This document shows positions 21,025 to 28,378 of a DNA stretch of 64,000 nucleotides, in pieces. Position 1 is the first letter of the stretch, and each line of letters opens with the position of its first letter. Source of the DNA: an uncultured Draconibacterium sp. (lineage in GTDB: Bacteria; Bacteroidota; Bacteroidia; Bacteroidales; Prolixibacteraceae); contig OY781971.1 in the NCBI GenBank assembly GCA_963677455.1, forward strand, positions 5,889,180 to 5,953,179. Direction: 5' to 3'. Both the position numbers and the translations under genes were made by a program. The notes under the pieces are model-generated. The model did not search any database, was not told the origin of the DNA, and was given only the letters and a program-made list of their open reading frames with translations.

Positions 21025-21401
21025 GATAATGCCGGAAAGCTAAGCTGGAGCTTTATGCTATTCATCCGATGACTGTCAGAAGATGGTTTTCGGGTGAATT
21101 TGTTTTTGGGCTGTTTGGTTTTGTTTTGATATATAGTGCTTTAAGGTTCGTTGGGGCTGAGTGCAGTAAATTCTTTTTTGGTTTTTTGCAAAAAAAATGG
21201 TACTGTGTCGCTTTCAGCTACAAAATCATTATTGATTATGCACATTACAGATTGTCCTATTGTTGAATTGATTGAAGCGTTAAACTATATCTCTGTTTAT
21301 TAATGGAAAACAGAAATAGTTTGGCTTTTAAGTGAGATTAGTGAGGTGATGATAATCTGAAAAAAAAGATAAAAACAAGCTTAGAGCAATAACAACAAAT
21401 T

Positions 21402-23063
21402 ATGGCAAAAGAAGAAAAAGCACCTCACGAAGGTGAAGCTCACTTGGTAAGCACCAAAAAGTATTTTGATGTAGACGGACCAGTTTTTTGGCCGGCAGCA
21501 ATAGTAATTATTCTATTTATTGCAATTACATTAATTGTTGGTGAACCAATGAATGAGGTTTTCGCAACAATTCAAACTTCAATTTCAAATTATGGCGGAT
21601 GGTTTTTTGTGATCAGTGTTAATATATTCCTGTTTTTTGTACTTTTTATCGCCTTTAGTAAATATGGTAGTATCCGACTGGGAGGCCCTAAAGCTAAGCC
21701 CGAATTTTCTAAAGGTGCCTGGTTTGCTATGTTATTTAGTGCGGGAATGGGAATTGGTATTTTGTTTTGGAGTGTAGGCGAACCTATAAACCATTTTATT
21801 AGTCCTCCTGAAGGTGTGGCACGATCAACCGAAGCTGCCCGGACATCAATGGAAATGACTTTTCTGCACTGGGGCTTACATGCCTGGGGAATTTACGCAC
21901 TGGTAGGTATGGCACTGGCTTTTTTTACGTTTAATAAGAAGTTACCGCTTACCATCAGCTCCATATTTTATCCGCTTTTGGGAAACAAGGTTTATGGTCC
22001 GTTGGGAAAAGCAATTAATGTACTGGCGGTAGTTGCTACACTTTTCGGCCTTGCTACTTCGTTAGGAATGGGTGTGCAACAGGTTAGTGCCGGATTGGCG
22101 CATCTTTTTAATATGCCCGACACAATCACTTCTCAGGTGATTCTGATCGTCTTAATTACTTTTGCAGCTACCGCATCAGTAGTAGCAGGTCTTAGTGGTG
22201 GTGTAAAGCGCTTAAGTGAGATAAACATCATAATTGCAGCGGTGTTTCTGTTGTTTATGATTATTGTAGGGCCAACGCTATTTATATTCGATTCTTTTAT
22301 TCAAAATCTTGGCGAGTATGTTCAGAACTTTTTTGAACTGTCGACATGGACAGAAACCTATCAGCAATCGAACTGGCAAAACGATTGGACTGTTTTTTAT
22401 TGGGCCTGGTGGGTTAGCTGGTCGCCGTTTGTAGGAATGTTTATTGCCCGTATCTCACGAGGAAGAACCTTAAAGGAATTCGTACTTGGGGTTTTAATTG
22501 TACCAACGCTACTGACATTTTTATGGCTTTCAACTTTTGGCGGTAGCGCTATGTTCTTGGAGTTGAATTCGATGGCCGACATTGCCGGTGCGGTAACTGA
22601 TAATATTGCTACATCGCTGTATGTTCTGCTGGAGCAGTTCCCTATTTCTGGGATAACATCTACGGTTGGTGTGCTTTTGGTAACCAGCTTTTTTATCACT
22701 TCTTCCGACTCGGGCTCGTTAGTCGTCGACTCATTAACGGCAGGAGGGAAATTGGATGCTCCTGTTCCGCAGCGAATTTTCTGGGCTTTAACAGAAGGAG
22801 CTGTTGCTGCAGTTTTATTGGTTGGTGGTGGACTTGGTGCTTTGCAAACTGCCGCTATTTCAACCGGATTACCATTTGCCATTATTTTACTTTTTGTGGT
22901 ATGGAGTTTAATAAAGGGATTACGGGAAGAACACCAGGGATTAATGGAGATAAAACGCGTAAAAGAGCAAGACCGGTATCAGGAAATAATTTCTAAGATG
23001 CTACAAAAGCGCGGACAAATAAAGTCTCCGCCAAAACCACAATCAAATAAAGATAATTTATAA
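21402..23063 (+). CDS. BCCT-family (betaine/carnitine/choline) transporter
   Basis: WFAMLFSAGMGIG, FLHWGLHAW, YWAWWVSWSPFVGMFIARISRGRT, FFITSSDSG. Confidence 0.96.
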   Translation: MAKEEKAPHEGEAHLVSTKKYFDVDGPVFWPAAIVIILFIAITLIVGEPMNEVFATIQTSISNYGGWFFVISVNIFLFFVLFIAFSKYGSIRLGGPKAKPEFSKGAWFAMLFSAGMGIGILFWSVGEPINHFISPPEGVARSTEAARTSMEMTFLHWGLHAWGIYALVGMALAFFTFNKKLPLTISSIFYPLLGNKVYGPLGKAINVLAVVATLFGLATSLGMGVQQVSAGLAHLFNMPDTITSQVILIVLITFAATASVVAGLSGGVKRLSEINIIIAAVFLLFMIIVGPTLFIFDSFIQNLGEYVQNFFELSTWTETYQQSNWQNDWTVFYWAWWVSWSPFVGMFIARISRGRTLKEFVLGVLIVPTLLTFLWLSTFGGSAMFLELNSMADIAGAVTDNIATSLYVLLEQFPISGITSTVGVLLVTSFFITSSDSGSLVVDSLTAGGKLDAPVPQRIFWALTEGAVAAVLLVGGGLGALQTAAISTGLPFAIILLFVVWSLIKGLREEHQGLMEIKRVKEQDRYQEIISKMLQKRGQIKSPPKPQSNKDNL

Positions 23064-23083
23064 CCTATTTAATAAGAGTAACC

Positions 23084-24004
23084 ATGTATCAATTAAATCA
23101 TATTCTGGTATGCCTCGACCTAACCGAGATGGACGATTCCCTTATTCGGTATGCAGGATTTCTGGTAAATAAAATTAAGCCGGATAGTATAACGTTTATG
23201 CATGTAATGAGGCCTTTTGATATTCCGAAAGAGATATTGGAGGCTTTTCCGGAGATGGATGAGCCGGTGCCGGAAATCATCAGGGAAGAGCTTCATGATA
23301 AAATTTCGGAGCAGTTTAAAACTGATGTGGATGTAAAAATCACAACCAGCGTGAAGGAAGGATATCCGATAGAAACGATTGTTAAGTTCACGCAGGAAAA
23401 CAACATTACACTTACCCTGATGGGAAAGAAAATGGGTTATGAAGGTGGAGGAAGTATTGTGCGAAAAACATTGGGAATTATTCCTTCATCCGTGTTACTC
23501 GTAAGTGAAACCGTTCACGAGAGAATTGAAAATCTTTTGGTACGGATGGATTTCTCAAAAGTTAGTGAAATGGCCCTGCAAATGGCGCTTCGTTTAAAAG
23601 AATTAACCGATGCGAAAGTGGCTTGTCATCATGTGCACCGTTTGCCACTTAGCTATTTTCCACAAACACAACCAGAAGACGATGAGAAACTTCAGCGCTA
23701 TGTAGAAAAGGTTAGTCAGAAAGAGTTTCAGAAGTTTGTGAAGCGTTATAAACACGAACAGGATGAACTTCCTTTTTCTTATTCGCTAGATGTTGAAAAC
23801 GACGAAGCTCAGATTTTGTATCGACGCGCACTAACAACAGGTGCCGATATGATTGTAATTGGTTCGATAATAAGATCGGAGTTGGCAGATATTATTGTTG
23901 ATTCAACCTCAGAAAAACTGGCCGAATCCGAAAAAAATATTCCGGTTTTTATTGTTAACGACCGGAAGCAATCGGTGGGATTCTTAAAATCATTATTCAA
24001 ATAA
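23084..24004 (+). CDS. Tandem-domain universal stress protein
   Basis: ILVCLDLT...GYPIETIV...LMGKKMG; second domain LLVRMDFS...ADMIVIGS. Confidence 0.85.
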   Translation: MYQLNHILVCLDLTEMDDSLIRYAGFLVNKIKPDSITFMHVMRPFDIPKEILEAFPEMDEPVPEIIREELHDKISEQFKTDVDVKITTSVKEGYPIETIVKFTQENNITLTLMGKKMGYEGGGSIVRKTLGIIPSSVLLVSETVHERIENLLVRMDFSKVSEMALQMALRLKELTDAKVACHHVHRLPLSYFPQTQPEDDEKLQRYVEKVSQKEFQKFVKRYKHEQDELPFSYSLDVENDEAQILYRRALTTGADMIVIGSIIRSELADIIVDSTSEKLAESEKNIPVFIVNDRKQSVGFLKSLFK

Positions 24005-24017
24005 AAACAGCAACAAA

Positions 24018-24899
24018 ATGGTACAGTATTTATCAAAAGCAAATGTATTGGCGCTGTCGTTATTGCTTGTATTTCTTGCATCGTGCAATAACAAAACGGA
24101 TGAGGAAAGTGACAGAACTCTGGAGATTGTTTATACAGATTGGTCGGAAAGTGTGGCTATTACCTATCTGTCGTATGTTTTATTGGAAGAAAAGATGGAT
24201 TACAAGGTTACACTGAAGTTAACCGATGTAGAAACAGCCTACAAAGAGGTGGGAACTAATAAAGCCGATGTATTTACTGATGCATGGTTGCCAGAAACAC
24301 AAAAGCAATATTACAAAAAGTATAAGGACGAGATTGAGTTACTCGGAATTACTTATCCTGAGGCACATACCGGATTGGTTGTTCCCGCCTATAGTCAGTT
24401 AAAAACGATAGCCGATCTGCAAAGCTATCCGCATCCGATTATCGGGATTGATGCCGGTGCCGGAGTAATGCAGAAAACGCAGGCGGCAATTACCAAATAC
24501 GAATTGAAAAATCGACTATTAGATCTTTCTGAGGAAATAATGCTTAAACAGTTGGAAGATTCGATTCAAAGAAGGAAGGAAATAGTTATTACCGGTTGGG
24601 AGCCACATTGGATATTTGCGCGTTACGATGTACGTTTTTTGGAAGATCCGGATAATATTTTTGGACAGACCGAAAATATCTATACCATTGCTAATAAAAA
24701 TCTGCAGGAAACACATCCTAATGCCGTTCGATTTTTCGAGCGTATGCAGTTAACTGAAAAGCAACTCAACAGCCTGGTTTACGAAGTTAGCTTAAGCGAA
24801 GATCCTGTAAACGGTGCCAAAGCCTGGATTGCACAAAATGAATTTGTGGTTAATCAATGGATTAAAAACCTCACGAAAGAGCGGAAAAAGATTATGTAG
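24018..24899 (+). CDS. Glycine-betaine-type substrate-binding lipoprotein (OpuAC/ProX-like)
   Basis: Lipobox LASC; WSESVA, DAWLPETQ, GIDAGAG, GWEPHWIF, LEDPDNIFG. Confidence 0.9.
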   Translation: MVQYLSKANVLALSLLLVFLASCNNKTDEESDRTLEIVYTDWSESVAITYLSYVLLEEKMDYKVTLKLTDVETAYKEVGTNKADVFTDAWLPETQKQYYKKYKDEIELLGITYPEAHTGLVVPAYSQLKTIADLQSYPHPIIGIDAGAGVMQKTQAAITKYELKNRLLDLSEEIMLKQLEDSIQRRKEIVITGWEPHWIFARYDVRFLEDPDNIFGQTENIYTIANKNLQETHPNAVRFFERMQLTEKQLNSLVYEVSLSEDPVNGAKAWIAQNEFVVNQWIKNLTKERKKIM

Positions 24900-25439: not shown

Positions 25440-25811
25440 ATGAAGAAGCTTACGCAAAAAGAAGAAGAGATAATGAATTTCTTTTGGGAGAAAGGCCCAA
25501 TGTTTGTTAAGGAATTACAAGCCTTATACGCCGCTCAGAAATTGCATTACAATACACTTTCTACAATGGTTCGGGCACTCGAAGAAAAAGGGTTTATCGA
25601 TCATGAGAAGTTTGGAAACACTTATCGGTATTTTGCCGCAATTACCAAAGAAGAATACAGCAAAAAAACACTGGGTAGTGTAGTGAAGAAGTATTTCGAT
25701 AACTCGTACCGAAATGTGGTTTCTACATTGGTAGAAGAGGAAAACCTGTCGCTTGACGAGCTTAAAAAATTAATTGAAGACATCGAAAAACATCAAAACA
25801 ACCCGCGATGA
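25440..25811 (+). CDS. BlaI/MecI/CopY-family repressor
   Basis: LTQKEEEIM...W, HYNTLSTMVRALEEKGFI, YFDNSY...LV. Confidence 0.95.
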   Translation: MKKLTQKEEEIMNFFWEKGPMFVKELQALYAAQKLHYNTLSTMVRALEEKGFIDHEKFGNTYRYFAAITKEEYSKKTLGSVVKKYFDNSYRNVVSTLVEEENLSLDELKKLIEDIEKHQNNPR

Positions 25812-28378
25812 CCCCATTTTTTGTTTGGCTCATAAAATCTTCGGTAAGTCTGGCACTGTTGTATGTGGTGTTTAAACTGGCAGTAAGCCGCAACAAAATG
25901 CACACTGCTAACCGCTTTGTATTGCTGGGTATTTTGCTGAGCTCTGTGTTACTTCCTTTTGCTGATGTTCCTGTTTTTCGGGAAACAACTGTAGTTCCGC
26001 AATTTGAAGTTATTCACGAATTTATTGCTACGCCACAGGAAATATCTGTTGTTTCCACACAAAATAAGATTACTGAGACGATTGCAGAAACTCCGGCGTT
26101 GTTGTCTACCATTAACTGGTGGGTGGTGCTTTACCTGTCAATGATTGGGGTGCTGGTGATTCGTCTGGTTTTTTCGATGGCGCGTGTATTGCAGATTATT
26201 CGCCGGGCGGAAAAACAAAATTTCAGGGATGTGATATTGGCTATTGTTAAAGACTTTATTCAACCTTTTTCCTTTTTGCAGCATATTGTTTTGTCGGAGA
26301 AAGATTTTGCTGAGAACAAAGACATTGTGTTAGCTCACGAATATGCACACATTCAACACAAACATGCGATAGACCTGATGATCTGCGAGCTGTTTACTGC
26401 CCTTTTCTGGTTTAATCCTTTTATGTGGCTGTTGCGCCGCGAACTAAAACTAATACACGAATACCAGGCCGATGAGGCCGTACTAAATAAAGGCATCGAT
26501 GCAAAAACATACCAACTGTTGGTTCTAAAAAAGGCTGTAGGCGAAAGACGTTTTGCCCTGGCCAACAATTTTACTCAAAAACCAATTTTAAAACGAATTA
26601 AAATGATGCACATGAAAAACAATAAGCGATGGACAAGCCTGAAACTGGCTTTGTTTGTGCCGGTGGTAGCACTGCTTTTGCAGGCTTTTGCCGAGCCTGA
26701 ATTGATTGTAAAGAAAGCAGAAGCGTATTTGCCGGTTATCGCACAGCAGGATAGTTCTCAGGTTTGGATTGATTCGTGGGTGAGCAGCAAAATGGATTGT
26801 ATAACGAGTGAAGAATATTTTAAAGACAATCAGCCTATTTCAATTACCGATTCAGATCAGCCAATAAACGAGAAAAATACATTTCATAAAAAGAATGTGT
26901 TTATTATTCTTCAGAATTCTAAGGGCGAGTTACTGGTTGAAAACGAGAGACTTGAATTGAAAGATTTAGAAAAAAACTTGGAATCTTTCTTAAAAGGGAA
27001 AAATGAAATTACACAAGAGATTCCAGATAGTCAGTCGGAAGAGTTTCCAATTATTGGTAAAGTAAATGTTTCTCAGGGAATTATTCTTTATCGCCAAGAT
27101 GTAGTTACATCATCAACGGCAACCAAATCAGTTATGAACGAGATAGCTGAAGCCATTTTGAGTGTACGACAAGAAACTGCACATGCGAAATTTAGTACCG
27201 ATTATTTTTCCTTAAGTACGGATAAAAAGGAGGTTGTAAACCAAATAATTCCCGGCACAATAAATTTTCAAATTCCTAAAGGGACGAAAAGAACTTCCGA
27301 AATAACGCCACCGCGACCTCGTCCGGTGGATATAAAAATCACCGAGGATGGGAGATACCTACTGGGTATTTTTGAACCCAAGTACCAAACAATAAAATGG
27401 AGAAAAGCACTTACAAAGAGCGAACTTCGGGATTATATAGAAAAGGGGAGACTACATGCCGCCGAAAAGACAAAAGAGTATAATAGGAAGTATCAGCAGC
27501 AAGTATTGGTTTTAGTTGAGGTAGGAGTAAATGATAGGCAGGTGAATGAGTTAAAAGAATTTCTGAGTTCATTAGACAATTTGCGGGTAGTTTTTTCTAC
27601 CGATCGTACAGAAGAGGAATTTGGCGCATTTTCAAGTTCGCAAGTTGGAAAATCTGATATAATAGTTTATGCCGACAGGATGTTAGCTTTTGATAAACCA
27701 TGTACACTTGAAGAGGTAAAAGAGAAAGTCGAAGACGGCATAAAAACAATGGATAACAAAAAAACGATATCGGTTTTGGCTTTTAGCGATGTTTCAAAGG
27801 AGAGGTTAGATGCGGTTCTCAACGAATTAAATCAAATTCCTTTTAAAAAAGTAAGTACAACGGTTTTAACAAAAGAAAAAAAGCCGGTTTCATTGGCACA
27901 GCGCAAGGTTTTGTTAAAAGCAAACGGCAAGATTGATATTGACAACAAGGAATATGATTTAAACGAGTTTCAATCGCGAATAAATGAGATTGGAAATCAG
28001 TCTTCGAAAACAAATGTTGCCTTTGAGGTGGAAGATGATGTTACGTATATTCAAATAGAAACCGTAAAGCAGATGCTGAGAGAAGCAAATTTCGATCAGG
28101 TTGGTTACAGTATTCATAAACATTATCTTCGGGATACTGAGCCGGGAACAAAAATAGGAGAAGGCTCTACGATGTTTTGGACTAGCTGGAACGGTTCACC
28201 AGATCTGGAGAGAGTTAAACGAGCAGCTGAAAATTTTCTTTCAGGAAATGGTAATCGTAGTTTGTACGCCGGTATTACTCCCGATAAAAATGCTACGAAA
28301 GAGGATATCGATGCAGTTAAACAGGTGTTACAGGATGCCGGTTTCCTGAAAGTGAGTGTCCGGGAAAGCAGGAATTGA
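25808..28378 (+). CDS. M56 (BlaR1-like) metallopeptidase with extended periplasmic ExbD-like repeats
   Basis: HEYAH zinc motif, WFNPFMW, HEYQADEAV, LKRIKMM; overlaps the blaI stop; several ExbD-like segments downstream of the last TM. Confidence 0.9.
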   Translation: MTPFFVWLIKSSVSLALLYVVFKLAVSRNKMHTANRFVLLGILLSSVLLPFADVPVFRETTVVPQFEVIHEFIATPQEISVVSTQNKITETIAETPALLSTINWWVVLYLSMIGVLVIRLVFSMARVLQIIRRAEKQNFRDVILAIVKDFIQPFSFLQHIVLSEKDFAENKDIVLAHEYAHIQHKHAIDLMICELFTALFWFNPFMWLLRRELKLIHEYQADEAVLNKGIDAKTYQLLVLKKAVGERRFALANNFTQKPILKRIKMMHMKNNKRWTSLKLALFVPVVALLLQAFAEPELIVKKAEAYLPVIAQQDSSQVWIDSWVSSKMDCITSEEYFKDNQPISITDSDQPINEKNTFHKKNVFIILQNSKGELLVENERLELKDLEKNLESFLKGKNEITQEIPDSQSEEFPIIGKVNVSQGIILYRQDVVTSSTATKSVMNEIAEAILSVRQETAHAKFSTDYFSLSTDKKEVVNQIIPGTINFQIPKGTKRTSEITPPRPRPVDIKITEDGRYLLGIFEPKYQTIKWRKALTKSELRDYIEKGRLHAAEKTKEYNRKYQQQVLVLVEVGVNDRQVNELKEFLSSLDNLRVVFSTDRTEEEFGAFSSSQVGKSDIIVYADRMLAFDKPCTLEEVKEKVEDGIKTMDNKKTISVLAFSDVSKERLDAVLNELNQIPFKKVSTTVLTKEKKPVSLAQRKVLLKANGKIDIDNKEYDLNEFQSRINEIGNQSSKTNVAFEVEDDVTYIQIETVKQMLREANFDQVGYSIHKHYLRDTEPGTKIGEGSTMFWTSWNGSPDLERVKRAAENFLSGNGNRSLYAGITPDKNATKEDIDAVKQVLQDAGFLKVSVRESRN

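Follow-up and report, generated by a model that had tools for sequence, protein, structure and literature searches.

In a 64-kb stretch of DNA from an uncultured Draconibacterium sp. (the window, meaning the whole stretch that was analyzed), three same-strand open reading frames (ORFs) at 21402-24899 (+), separated by gaps of 20 and 13 nt, encode a BCCT carrier, a tandem universal stress protein (USP) and an OpuAC-type substrate-binding lipoprotein (SBP). This trio may well be an operon for the uptake of a trimethylammonium-type solute, in which the BCCT would translocate, the USP would regulate, and the SBP would capture the solute and pass it on; we give this reading a probability of about 0.55. 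A functional coupling of the orphan SBP to the BCCT is supported, at the level of sequence, by the synteny of the three genes among variable flanks, by the persistence of the SBP in genomes without an ATP-binding cassette (ABC) system, by natural fusions in which an additional transmembrane helix (TM13) joins a BCCT to an OpuAC domain, and by a clade-specific SBP tail. In the proposed mechanism the BCCT would act as an ion-coupled translocator, and the tandem USP, a regulatory subunit on the cytoplasmic side, would act in trans on the basic tail at the carrier's C-terminus. The lipid-anchored SBP would capture the solute in the periplasm by its Trp prism and hand it to, or concentrate it at, the outward-facing carrier, which would gain a higher affinity or a greater scavenging capacity. 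We infer the physical contact, the ligand hand-over, the identity of the substrate, the sodium coupling and the action of the USP on the tail. The features of the locus are the following (window coordinates).

21025..21401 (+), non-coding region 5' of the operon, 377 nt, presumed promoter
21402..23063 (+), BCCT-family secondary carrier, 553 aa, 12 transmembrane (TM) segments, TmaT/BetP-like; PF02028
22923..23060 (+), cytoplasmic basic C-terminal tail of the carrier, residues ~508-553, containing KEQDRYQEIISKMLQKR
23084..24004 (+), tandem USP, cytoplasmic, presumed carrier regulator, 306 aa with two PF00582 stretches
24018..24899 (+), OpuAC-type substrate-binding lipoprotein (SBP), orphan, 293 aa, PF04069; no adjoining ABC genes
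24018..24086 (+), SBP signal peptide and lipobox (LAS-C23), the Cys being present in 76/76 trio-type SBPs
24141..24599 (+), SBP ligand-site residues W42 (24141-24143), W90 (24285-24287) and W194 (24597-24599), from alignment to OpuA
24861..24896 (+), clade-specific C-terminal tail of the SBP, W-I-K-N-L-T-K-E-R-K-K-I-M-COOH

How stable is this arrangement? A profile built from 12 orthologues recovered 80 loci from GTDB species genomes, all of the Bacteroidales/Marinilabiliales type (Draconibacterium, Maribellus, Tangfeifania, Mariniphaga, Sunxiuqinia, Marinilabilia, Saccharicrinis, Plebeiibacterium, Salinivirga, Perlabentimonas and many metagenome-assembled genomes, MAGs). Seven of these are cut by contig ends. 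In 72 of the 73 evaluable loci, for which upstream DNA is available, tblastn places BCCT, USP and SBP in the same order and on the same strand, and across the loci the three proteins are 70-89%, 43-86% and 47-76% identical, respectively, to those of the window. The lone exception is a Salinivirgaceae MAG (L060 5506-7849) with a USP of 273 aa followed by a trio-type SBP and no BCCT in the 7 kb upstream, where lepA is found. Clustering of the ORFs of all 80 loci returned only the trio genes as shared, the next family occurring in 16 loci. The arrangement is far beyond chance, and because the gene order is conserved while the flanks vary, the trio is an autonomous module whose genes have stayed together as the DNA around them changed. 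The trio-type SBPs form one clade in the tree of substrate-binding domains (SBDs), with support of 99/97. An earlier note on this DNA, written from the sequence alone, had described three genes with the spacing given above, an OpuAC-like protein with no ABC permease or ATPase nearby, and a basic C-terminal tail on the BCCT, and had suggested examining how well the neighborhood is conserved. The layout is borne out by ORF coordinates and Pfam, neither operon nor window contains an ABC permease or ATPase gene, the basic tail is seen over ~45 residues, and the order has held while the flanks have not.

Could the SBP nevertheless belong to an ABC importer encoded elsewhere in the genome? The genome, a single contig of 6.09 Mb, has exactly two OpuAC genes, and the second lies ~1.7 Mb off (C1:4.22 Mb) in a complete operon consisting of a porin-like gene, proV, proW and proX. 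The ProV of that operon scores 417 bits with TIGR01186, above the cut-off, and its ProX is 33% identical to the orphan SBP. No ProV-like ATPase gene is found anywhere in the 64-kb window, all matches in the genome falling outside C1:5889180-5953179. The genome-wide search for proV and proW that the earlier note had called for cuts both ways: a full proVWX system is present, but it has its own ProX. Among the 73 genomes with a trio-type SBP, 55 (~75%) have a ProW homologue at E <= 1e-52 and 18 do not. At cut-offs of E <= 1e-60 for ProV and E <= 1e-6 for ProW, searches of the first nine ProW-negative genomes returned nothing, and in 8 of the 9 the trio SBP is the only OpuAC gene. In a Mariniphaga-like subclade, 5 of 6 members are without the ABC system, and the isolate Marinilabiliaceae bacterium JC017 (6.7 Mb) is also without a ProVW ABC system. 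The SBP of ABC-less genomes is full length and has kept both lipobox and Trp prism, with pairwise dN/dS of 0.11-0.17. Because proVWX is a single locus and most of the genomes are MAGs, the absences of ProV, of ProW and of the second OpuAC gene are not independent of each other. On a tree of concatenated BCCT, USP and SBP the absences are weakly clustered (13 changes versus 15.2 in shuffles, with ~10% of shuffles as low), and we therefore give weight to the 5/6 subclade and to purifying selection rather than to the raw 18/73. An ABC operon adjacent and divergent to the trio occurs in 7 loci and still has its own ProX, as it does wherever the operon is present. In an order-wide sample of 301 genomes, all eight of the eight trio genomes also hold a second OpuAC gene. 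In the ABC-less loci L030, L032, L036 and L039, the porin-like gene that elsewhere heads proVWX is found directly 5' of the BCCT gene.

The two protein families are also linked by natural fusions. A set of 5.8 billion proteins was queried with the BCCT as the scored part of an artificially long query, the candidates being at least ~730 aa in length. Ten 90%-identity clusters carry PF02028 and PF04069 on one chain of 803-903 aa, the BCCT part being 53-57% identical to the window BCCT. In P0131, Pfam places the BCCT at 27-509 and OpuAC at 581-840, and hydropathy identifies an extra hydrophobic helix at 544-562 in P0131, 584-602 in P0133 and 563-581 in P0135. The order within the fusions is BCCT (12 TM segments), a short cytoplasmic linker, TM13 and a C-terminal OpuAC domain, and TM13 thereby places the OpuAC domain outside the membrane. 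The Trp prism is retained in P0131 and P0133. The TM13 region of P0133 closes with AGILGC, the remnant of a lipobox, and this suggests that the fusion arose by read-through into the signal peptide of a lipoprotein. The fusions come from many independent assemblies, the P0140 cluster having 14 members from NCBI, ENA and Logan, and one BCCT-OpuAC fusion is labelled Spirochaeta sp. As for their genomic settings, the fusion gene of L093 is divergent to a proV-proW-proX operon, and that of L094 adjoins genes for an MscS channel and an outer-membrane barrel. The fused SBDs form a clade of their own (94/87) that is not sister to the trio SBP clade; because the two clades are separate and non-sister, the tree points to independent recruitment of an OpuAC partner by the trio and by the fusions. 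A search for long proteins with an SBD close to the window SBP found none, probably owing to word-sharing limits.

The SBP itself matches PF04069 (OpuAC) at E 8.9e-56 in Pfam, and its N-terminus, MVQYLSKANVLALSLLLVFLAS-C23, is a signal peptide ending in the lipobox L-A-S-C23. The solved structures most similar to it are those of the L. lactis OpuA SBD, which binds glycine betaine (7ahc/3l6g, E 4e-48), and of B. subtilis OpuAC. By alignment, the Trp prism of OpuA (W330/W377/W484) corresponds to W42/W90/W194 of the SBP, and the main-chain carboxylate site GAGV to G147-V150. W42, W90, W194, G149 and the lipobox Cys are invariant in 76/76 orthologues, and position 95, after W90, is His in 52 of the 76 and Gln in the other 24, including the window SBP (Q95). 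Since the Trp prism and G149 are kept as in the OpuA SBD, the SBP appears to be a competent binder of a trimethylammonium-type ligand. Because the pocket is betaine-type, glycine betaine is our best guess for the substrate, with choline, trimethylamine (TMA), trimethylamine N-oxide (TMAO) and compounds like dimethylsulfoniopropionate (DMSP) remaining as alternatives.

Beyond the binding fold, the trio-type SBPs end in W-[VTI]-[KR]-x-L-x-P-E-R-K-K-I-M-COOH, a tail in which R at -5, K at -3 and L at -9 are each found in 74/76 sequences and M at -1 in 68/76. It is absent from 7/7 ABC-linked ProX proteins examined, which end 2-3 residues past the equivalent Trp. An orphan SBP in L095 (36% identical), beside a BCCT-USP pair, also has the tail (GLSPEREKVM). 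The tail is a candidate docking element. Export of the lipoprotein to the cell surface through the Bacteroidota lipoprotein export signal, which would have uncoupled the SBP from an inner-membrane carrier, was considered and dropped: the Cys is indeed followed by acidic residues, but in ABC-linked ProX this stretch is no less acidic, and the feature does not discriminate between the two.

The carrier matches PF02028 at E 4.6e-193 over residues 28-510 (Pfam; profile positions 1-485 of 485) and has about 12 TM segments in hydropathy analysis. It scores 523.7 bits with TIGR00842, above the cut-off of 407.55, and 603 bits with NF047988 (betaine_BCCT), under the cut-off of 650. The genome has one copy each of the BCCT gene and the tandem-USP gene. 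Among solved structures, the carrier is closest to TmaT of Myroides profundi (8zw8, E 1.2e-172, 578 bits), then to BetT (411 bits) and BetP (331 bits). In the alignment with TmaT, the aromatic box (TM4 WGxHxWxxY and TM8 FYWAWW) and the GMGIG of TM3 are identical, and the basic C-terminal tails align. A search for flavin-containing monooxygenase (FMO)-like genes found no FMO/Tmm gene in the genome; because of this, the TmaT-Tmm piezolyte pathway from TMA to TMAO (PMC7997507) is not indicated here and was dropped. Another kind of extracytoplasmic accessory domain is seen on the BCCTs P0124-P0128 (734-740 aa, 61-63% identical to the window BCCT), which have an insert of ~190 aa between TM1 and TM2 that is predicted to be periplasmic and resembles repeated PDZ-like domains, P0127 having a weak PF14685 match.

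What does the tandem USP contribute? Pfam finds PF00582 in two stretches (E 1.4e-23), and phmmer of the USP against PDB sequences gave no matches. An AlphaFold2 (AF2) model, with a predicted local distance difference test score of 85 and a predicted template-modeling score (pTM) of 0.85, has as its best fold matches the tandem USPs Rv2623 and UspE (template-modeling scores 0.68-0.72) and then the C-terminal regulatory domains of SLC12 cotransporters (E 1e-7 to 1e-5, 9-12% identity). The canonical nucleotide motif G-2x-G-9x-G(S/T) is absent from both domains of the window USP, domain 1 having a conserved, compressed GKKxGYxGxG-S and domain 2 G-S-x-x-K...D-S-T. Fusions of BCCT to USP (PF02028 with PF00582) are also found, in P0129 (Cytophagales bacterium), P0163 (Polyangiaceae bacterium), P0146 and others; in P0129 the tandem USP directly follows the conserved basic tail and aligns with the window USP. 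In the motif comparison, domain 2 of the fused P0129 is the one place where the canonical ATP motif occurs. Of 401 genomes sampled across the phylum, 30 contained TmaT-like BCCTs, at 48-66% identity, and in all 20 of the 20 loci examined (L096-L114 among them), outside the order, a tandem USP lies directly 3' of the BCCT. As regards the suggestion in the earlier note that the USP regulates the carrier, perhaps through its basic tail, a coupling of the two is supported by this constant adjacency and by the fusions that place a USP behind that tail.

Directly 5' of the BCCT, 11 of the same 20 loci have the porin-like gene, which lies beside the trio in 16 of the 80 trio loci and heads the proVWX operon in the window's genome (G000:C1 ~4219561-4220778; L011 3562-4779) and in G639, a genome from another class of the phylum. 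Homologues are found at L030 3130-4326, L099 7710-8891 and L115 9113-10273. The encoded protein of ~400 aa is a predicted outer-membrane beta-barrel with a signal peptide and ends in NINLGYYF; it has no Pfam match, and phmmer against PDB sequences found none. This barrel is a candidate quaternary-amine porin family. G639 has, in addition, an orphan OpuAC lipoprotein gene (L095 8881-9825, -) convergent with BCCT-USP, and a separate porin-proV-proW-proX operon elsewhere (L115). Its layout looks like a second gene arrangement of the same SBP-BCCT partnership.

In the window, the two short intergenic gaps leave no space for promoters inside the operon, and a sigma-70-type scan of the 377-nt upstream region found no convincing site, the promoter and terminator scans being uninformative. 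A search for RNA runs that could show co-transcription returned none. A non-coding stretch of ~540 nt lies 3' of the trio. Beyond it, the unrelated genes at 25440-28378 encode a BlaI/CopY-type repressor and an 856-aa M56 (BlaR1-like) protein with an ExbD-like C-terminal region. The closest relatives of the SBP are named Draconibacterium and Maribellus (Prolixibacteraceae).

Several observations weigh against a BCCT served by this SBP. TmaT is a TMA-specific Na+ symporter that is active alone in proteoliposomes (PMC11708041), and a mismatch of substrates is possible, the nearest characterized carrier being TMA-specific and the SBP pocket apparently betaine-type. Among the 20 phylum-wide BCCT-USP loci, 19 have no SBP, G639 being the exception, and OpuAC genes are missing altogether from 13 of the 20 genomes. 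This genome and the others that make up the 55/73 have a ProVW able in principle to accept the SBP, and some of the ABC absences are probably assembly gaps, since many of the ABC-less genomes are MAGs. Substitutions specific to the BCCTs of the trio are not enriched in periplasmic loops (0.055/site versus 0.04 in TM and cytoplasmic segments). AF2 of a natural BCCT-OpuAC fusion, a stand-in for multimer prediction, modeled the domains confidently and the linker and TM13 poorly (pTM 0.67), and gave no docking geometry; Foldseek with this model returned only TmaT, BetT and BetP again. In addition, the accepted SBP-dependent secondary carriers are all of the elevator type, whereas BCCTs are rocking-bundle carriers (PMC12344293). 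Because 19 of the 20 loci are without an SBP, the [porin]-BCCT-USP module is the ancient part and the SBP a lineage-specific addition to it, and because TmaT also transports alone, the SBP is probably an accessory rather than an obligatory subunit, the carrier being likely to work without it. The idea of the earlier note, a binding-protein-assisted BCCT, agrees with the evidence as far as assistance is concerned, given the synteny, the ABC-less persistence, the fusions and the tail, but dependence on the binding protein does not, given the SBP-less BCCT-USP loci and TmaT acting alone.

If the SBP did not serve the BCCT, what else might it do? It could be a second, alternative binding protein of the distant ProVW, widening its substrate range or affinity, and merely be co-regulated with the BCCT under osmotic stress. 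ABC systems with several SBPs are established, the nearest solved relatives of the SBP are SBDs of ABC transporters, and the requisite proV-proW-proX set is complete in this genome and in 55/73 trio genomes, stands directly beside the trio in 7 loci, and is matched by the second OpuAC gene in every trio genome of the order-wide sample. We nonetheless consider this explanation unlikely. Purifying selection keeps the SBP intact even in genomes in which neither ProV, ProW nor another OpuAC could be detected; it is never encoded beside proW and always after BCCT-USP; each ABC operon comes with a ProX of its own; the trio-specific tail is missing from the ABC-linked ProX proteins examined; and the single chains of BCCT and OpuAC indicate that this domain type can serve a BCCT.

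Somewhat harder to believe is a role of the SBP as sensor or allosteric regulator in the periplasm, in which the loaded SBP would dock on the carrier or on another membrane partner and switch its activity without donating ligand, the USP being its cytoplasmic counterpart. SBPs that act as sensors for membrane proteins are established (PMC8050422), regulatory parts are plentiful in the rest of the module (a USP and an osmosensor-like tail), and a protein added to a BCCT-USP core that does without it in most of the phylum need not deliver anything. However, no kinase, chemoreceptor or cyclase is conserved beside the trio, and the fused SBDs keep a full ligand site ~20 residues from the membrane, like the delivery SBDs of L. 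lactis OpuA. Least probable, and with little chance of being right, is the absence of any direct partnership, the genes forming a co-expressed stress cassette in which the lipoprotein holds or buffers solutes of the betaine type in the periplasm or plays some other part under stress. Orphan OpuAC-like lipoproteins do exist elsewhere, such as GbsU of Halobacillus (PMC6207618), and L060 has USP-SBP without an adjoining BCCT; a mere cassette sits poorly with a gene order that is extremely stable over deep divergence while the flanks vary, with independent covalent fusions to BCCTs, and with a conserved and specific C-terminal tail on the SBP.

If the SBP does assist the BCCT, the consequences reach beyond this operon. 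As of August 2025, the accepted SBP-using secondary transporters were the tripartite ATP-independent periplasmic (TRAP) and tripartite tricarboxylate (TTT) families, with TAXI-GltS newly proposed, and the authors of the latter proposal speculate that an elevator mechanism may be a prerequisite for SBP use (PMC12344293). Neither an SBP that works with a BCCT nor a BCCT-OpuAC fusion is described in the papers that our literature searches covered. A BCCT working with an OpuAC-type SBP would, if true, break the elevator rule, and an ABC-type SBP would then have been re-used by an ion-driven LeuT-fold carrier. We see even odds for the broader proposition that BCCTs recruited an OpuAC-type partner at least twice, as a separate lipoprotein with a docking tail in Marinilabiliales-type Bacteroidota and as a fused domain behind TM13 in other phyla. 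They would then constitute a further SBP-assisted class, the first that is not of the elevator type, with the tandem USP as a built-in cytoplasmic regulator analogous to the C-terminal domain of SLC12. Natural single-chain fusions lend themselves to work in proteoliposomes and to cryo-electron microscopy, and the short SBP tail can be deleted as a direct test. The tandem USP emerges as a previously unrecognized constant partner of TmaT-like carriers in marine Bacteroidota, carriers that matter for the cycling of methylamines and osmolytes, and the porin-like gene points to an uncharacterized outer-membrane barrel family linked to quaternary-amine uptake.

The trio is reminiscent of several known systems, and differs from each. 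The carrier shares its aromatic-box motifs and C-terminal tail with TmaT (8zw8) and the trimeric LeuT-fold BCCT architecture with BetP of C. glutamicum; TmaT and BetP are described as stand-alone, and neither PMC11708041 nor PMC7997507 mentions a partner SBP or USP. The SLC12 carriers (KCC/NKCC) have C-terminal domains made of tandem USP-like modules that regulate a LeuT-fold carrier in volume or osmotic control, an architecture that the BCCT-USP fusions share; the likeness of the window USP to these domains is at the level of fold only, and here the USP is a separate polypeptide. The ectoine TRAP system of Halomonas elongata, TeaABC with TeaD, is likewise an osmolyte uptake operon of secondary carrier, periplasmic binding protein and USP. 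The parallel with it drawn in the earlier note survives as an analogy and not as kinship: the fold of the SBP is that of OpuAC (ABC cluster F type) and not of DctP, the membrane part is a 12-TM LeuT-fold BCCT and not the elevator DctQM, and the USP, unlike TeaD, is tandem and without the canonical ATP motif. TRAP systems are SBP-dependent, whereas the relatives of this carrier work without an SBP. Membership of TRAP or TTT is not indicated, the SBP not being of the DctP, TAXI or TctC type nor the membrane protein of the DctQM or TctAB type, and the likeness is one of analogy at most.

A similar line of argument has been made for TAXI-GltS of Bordetella pertussis (PMC12344293), since there too an SBP gene is tightly linked to a stand-alone-type carrier, the canonical partner is missing, and rare SBP-carrier fusions occur. 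The two differ in the SBP (OpuAC versus TAXI), in the carrier (BCCT rocking bundle versus the predicted elevator of GltS), in the USP as a third constant member here, and in the fusions found here, in which the SBD is C-terminal and follows an extra TM helix. GbsU of Halobacillus halophilus (PMC6207618) is also an OpuAC-type lipoprotein with an aromatic cage and no ABC partner genes, but it sits with a regulator and betaine-synthesis genes and not in a carrier operon. The glycine-betaine ABC importers L. lactis OpuA and B. subtilis OpuAC have a homologous SBP with the same Trp prism, the same contacts of main chain to carboxylate, and a tether that is either a lipid or a TM segment; in contrast to them, the trio operon has no OpuAA/OpuAB partner, some genomes have none at all, and the SBP has an extra conserved tail. 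In placing an SBD on a tether to its translocator, the BCCT-OpuAC fusions copy the principle of OpuA.

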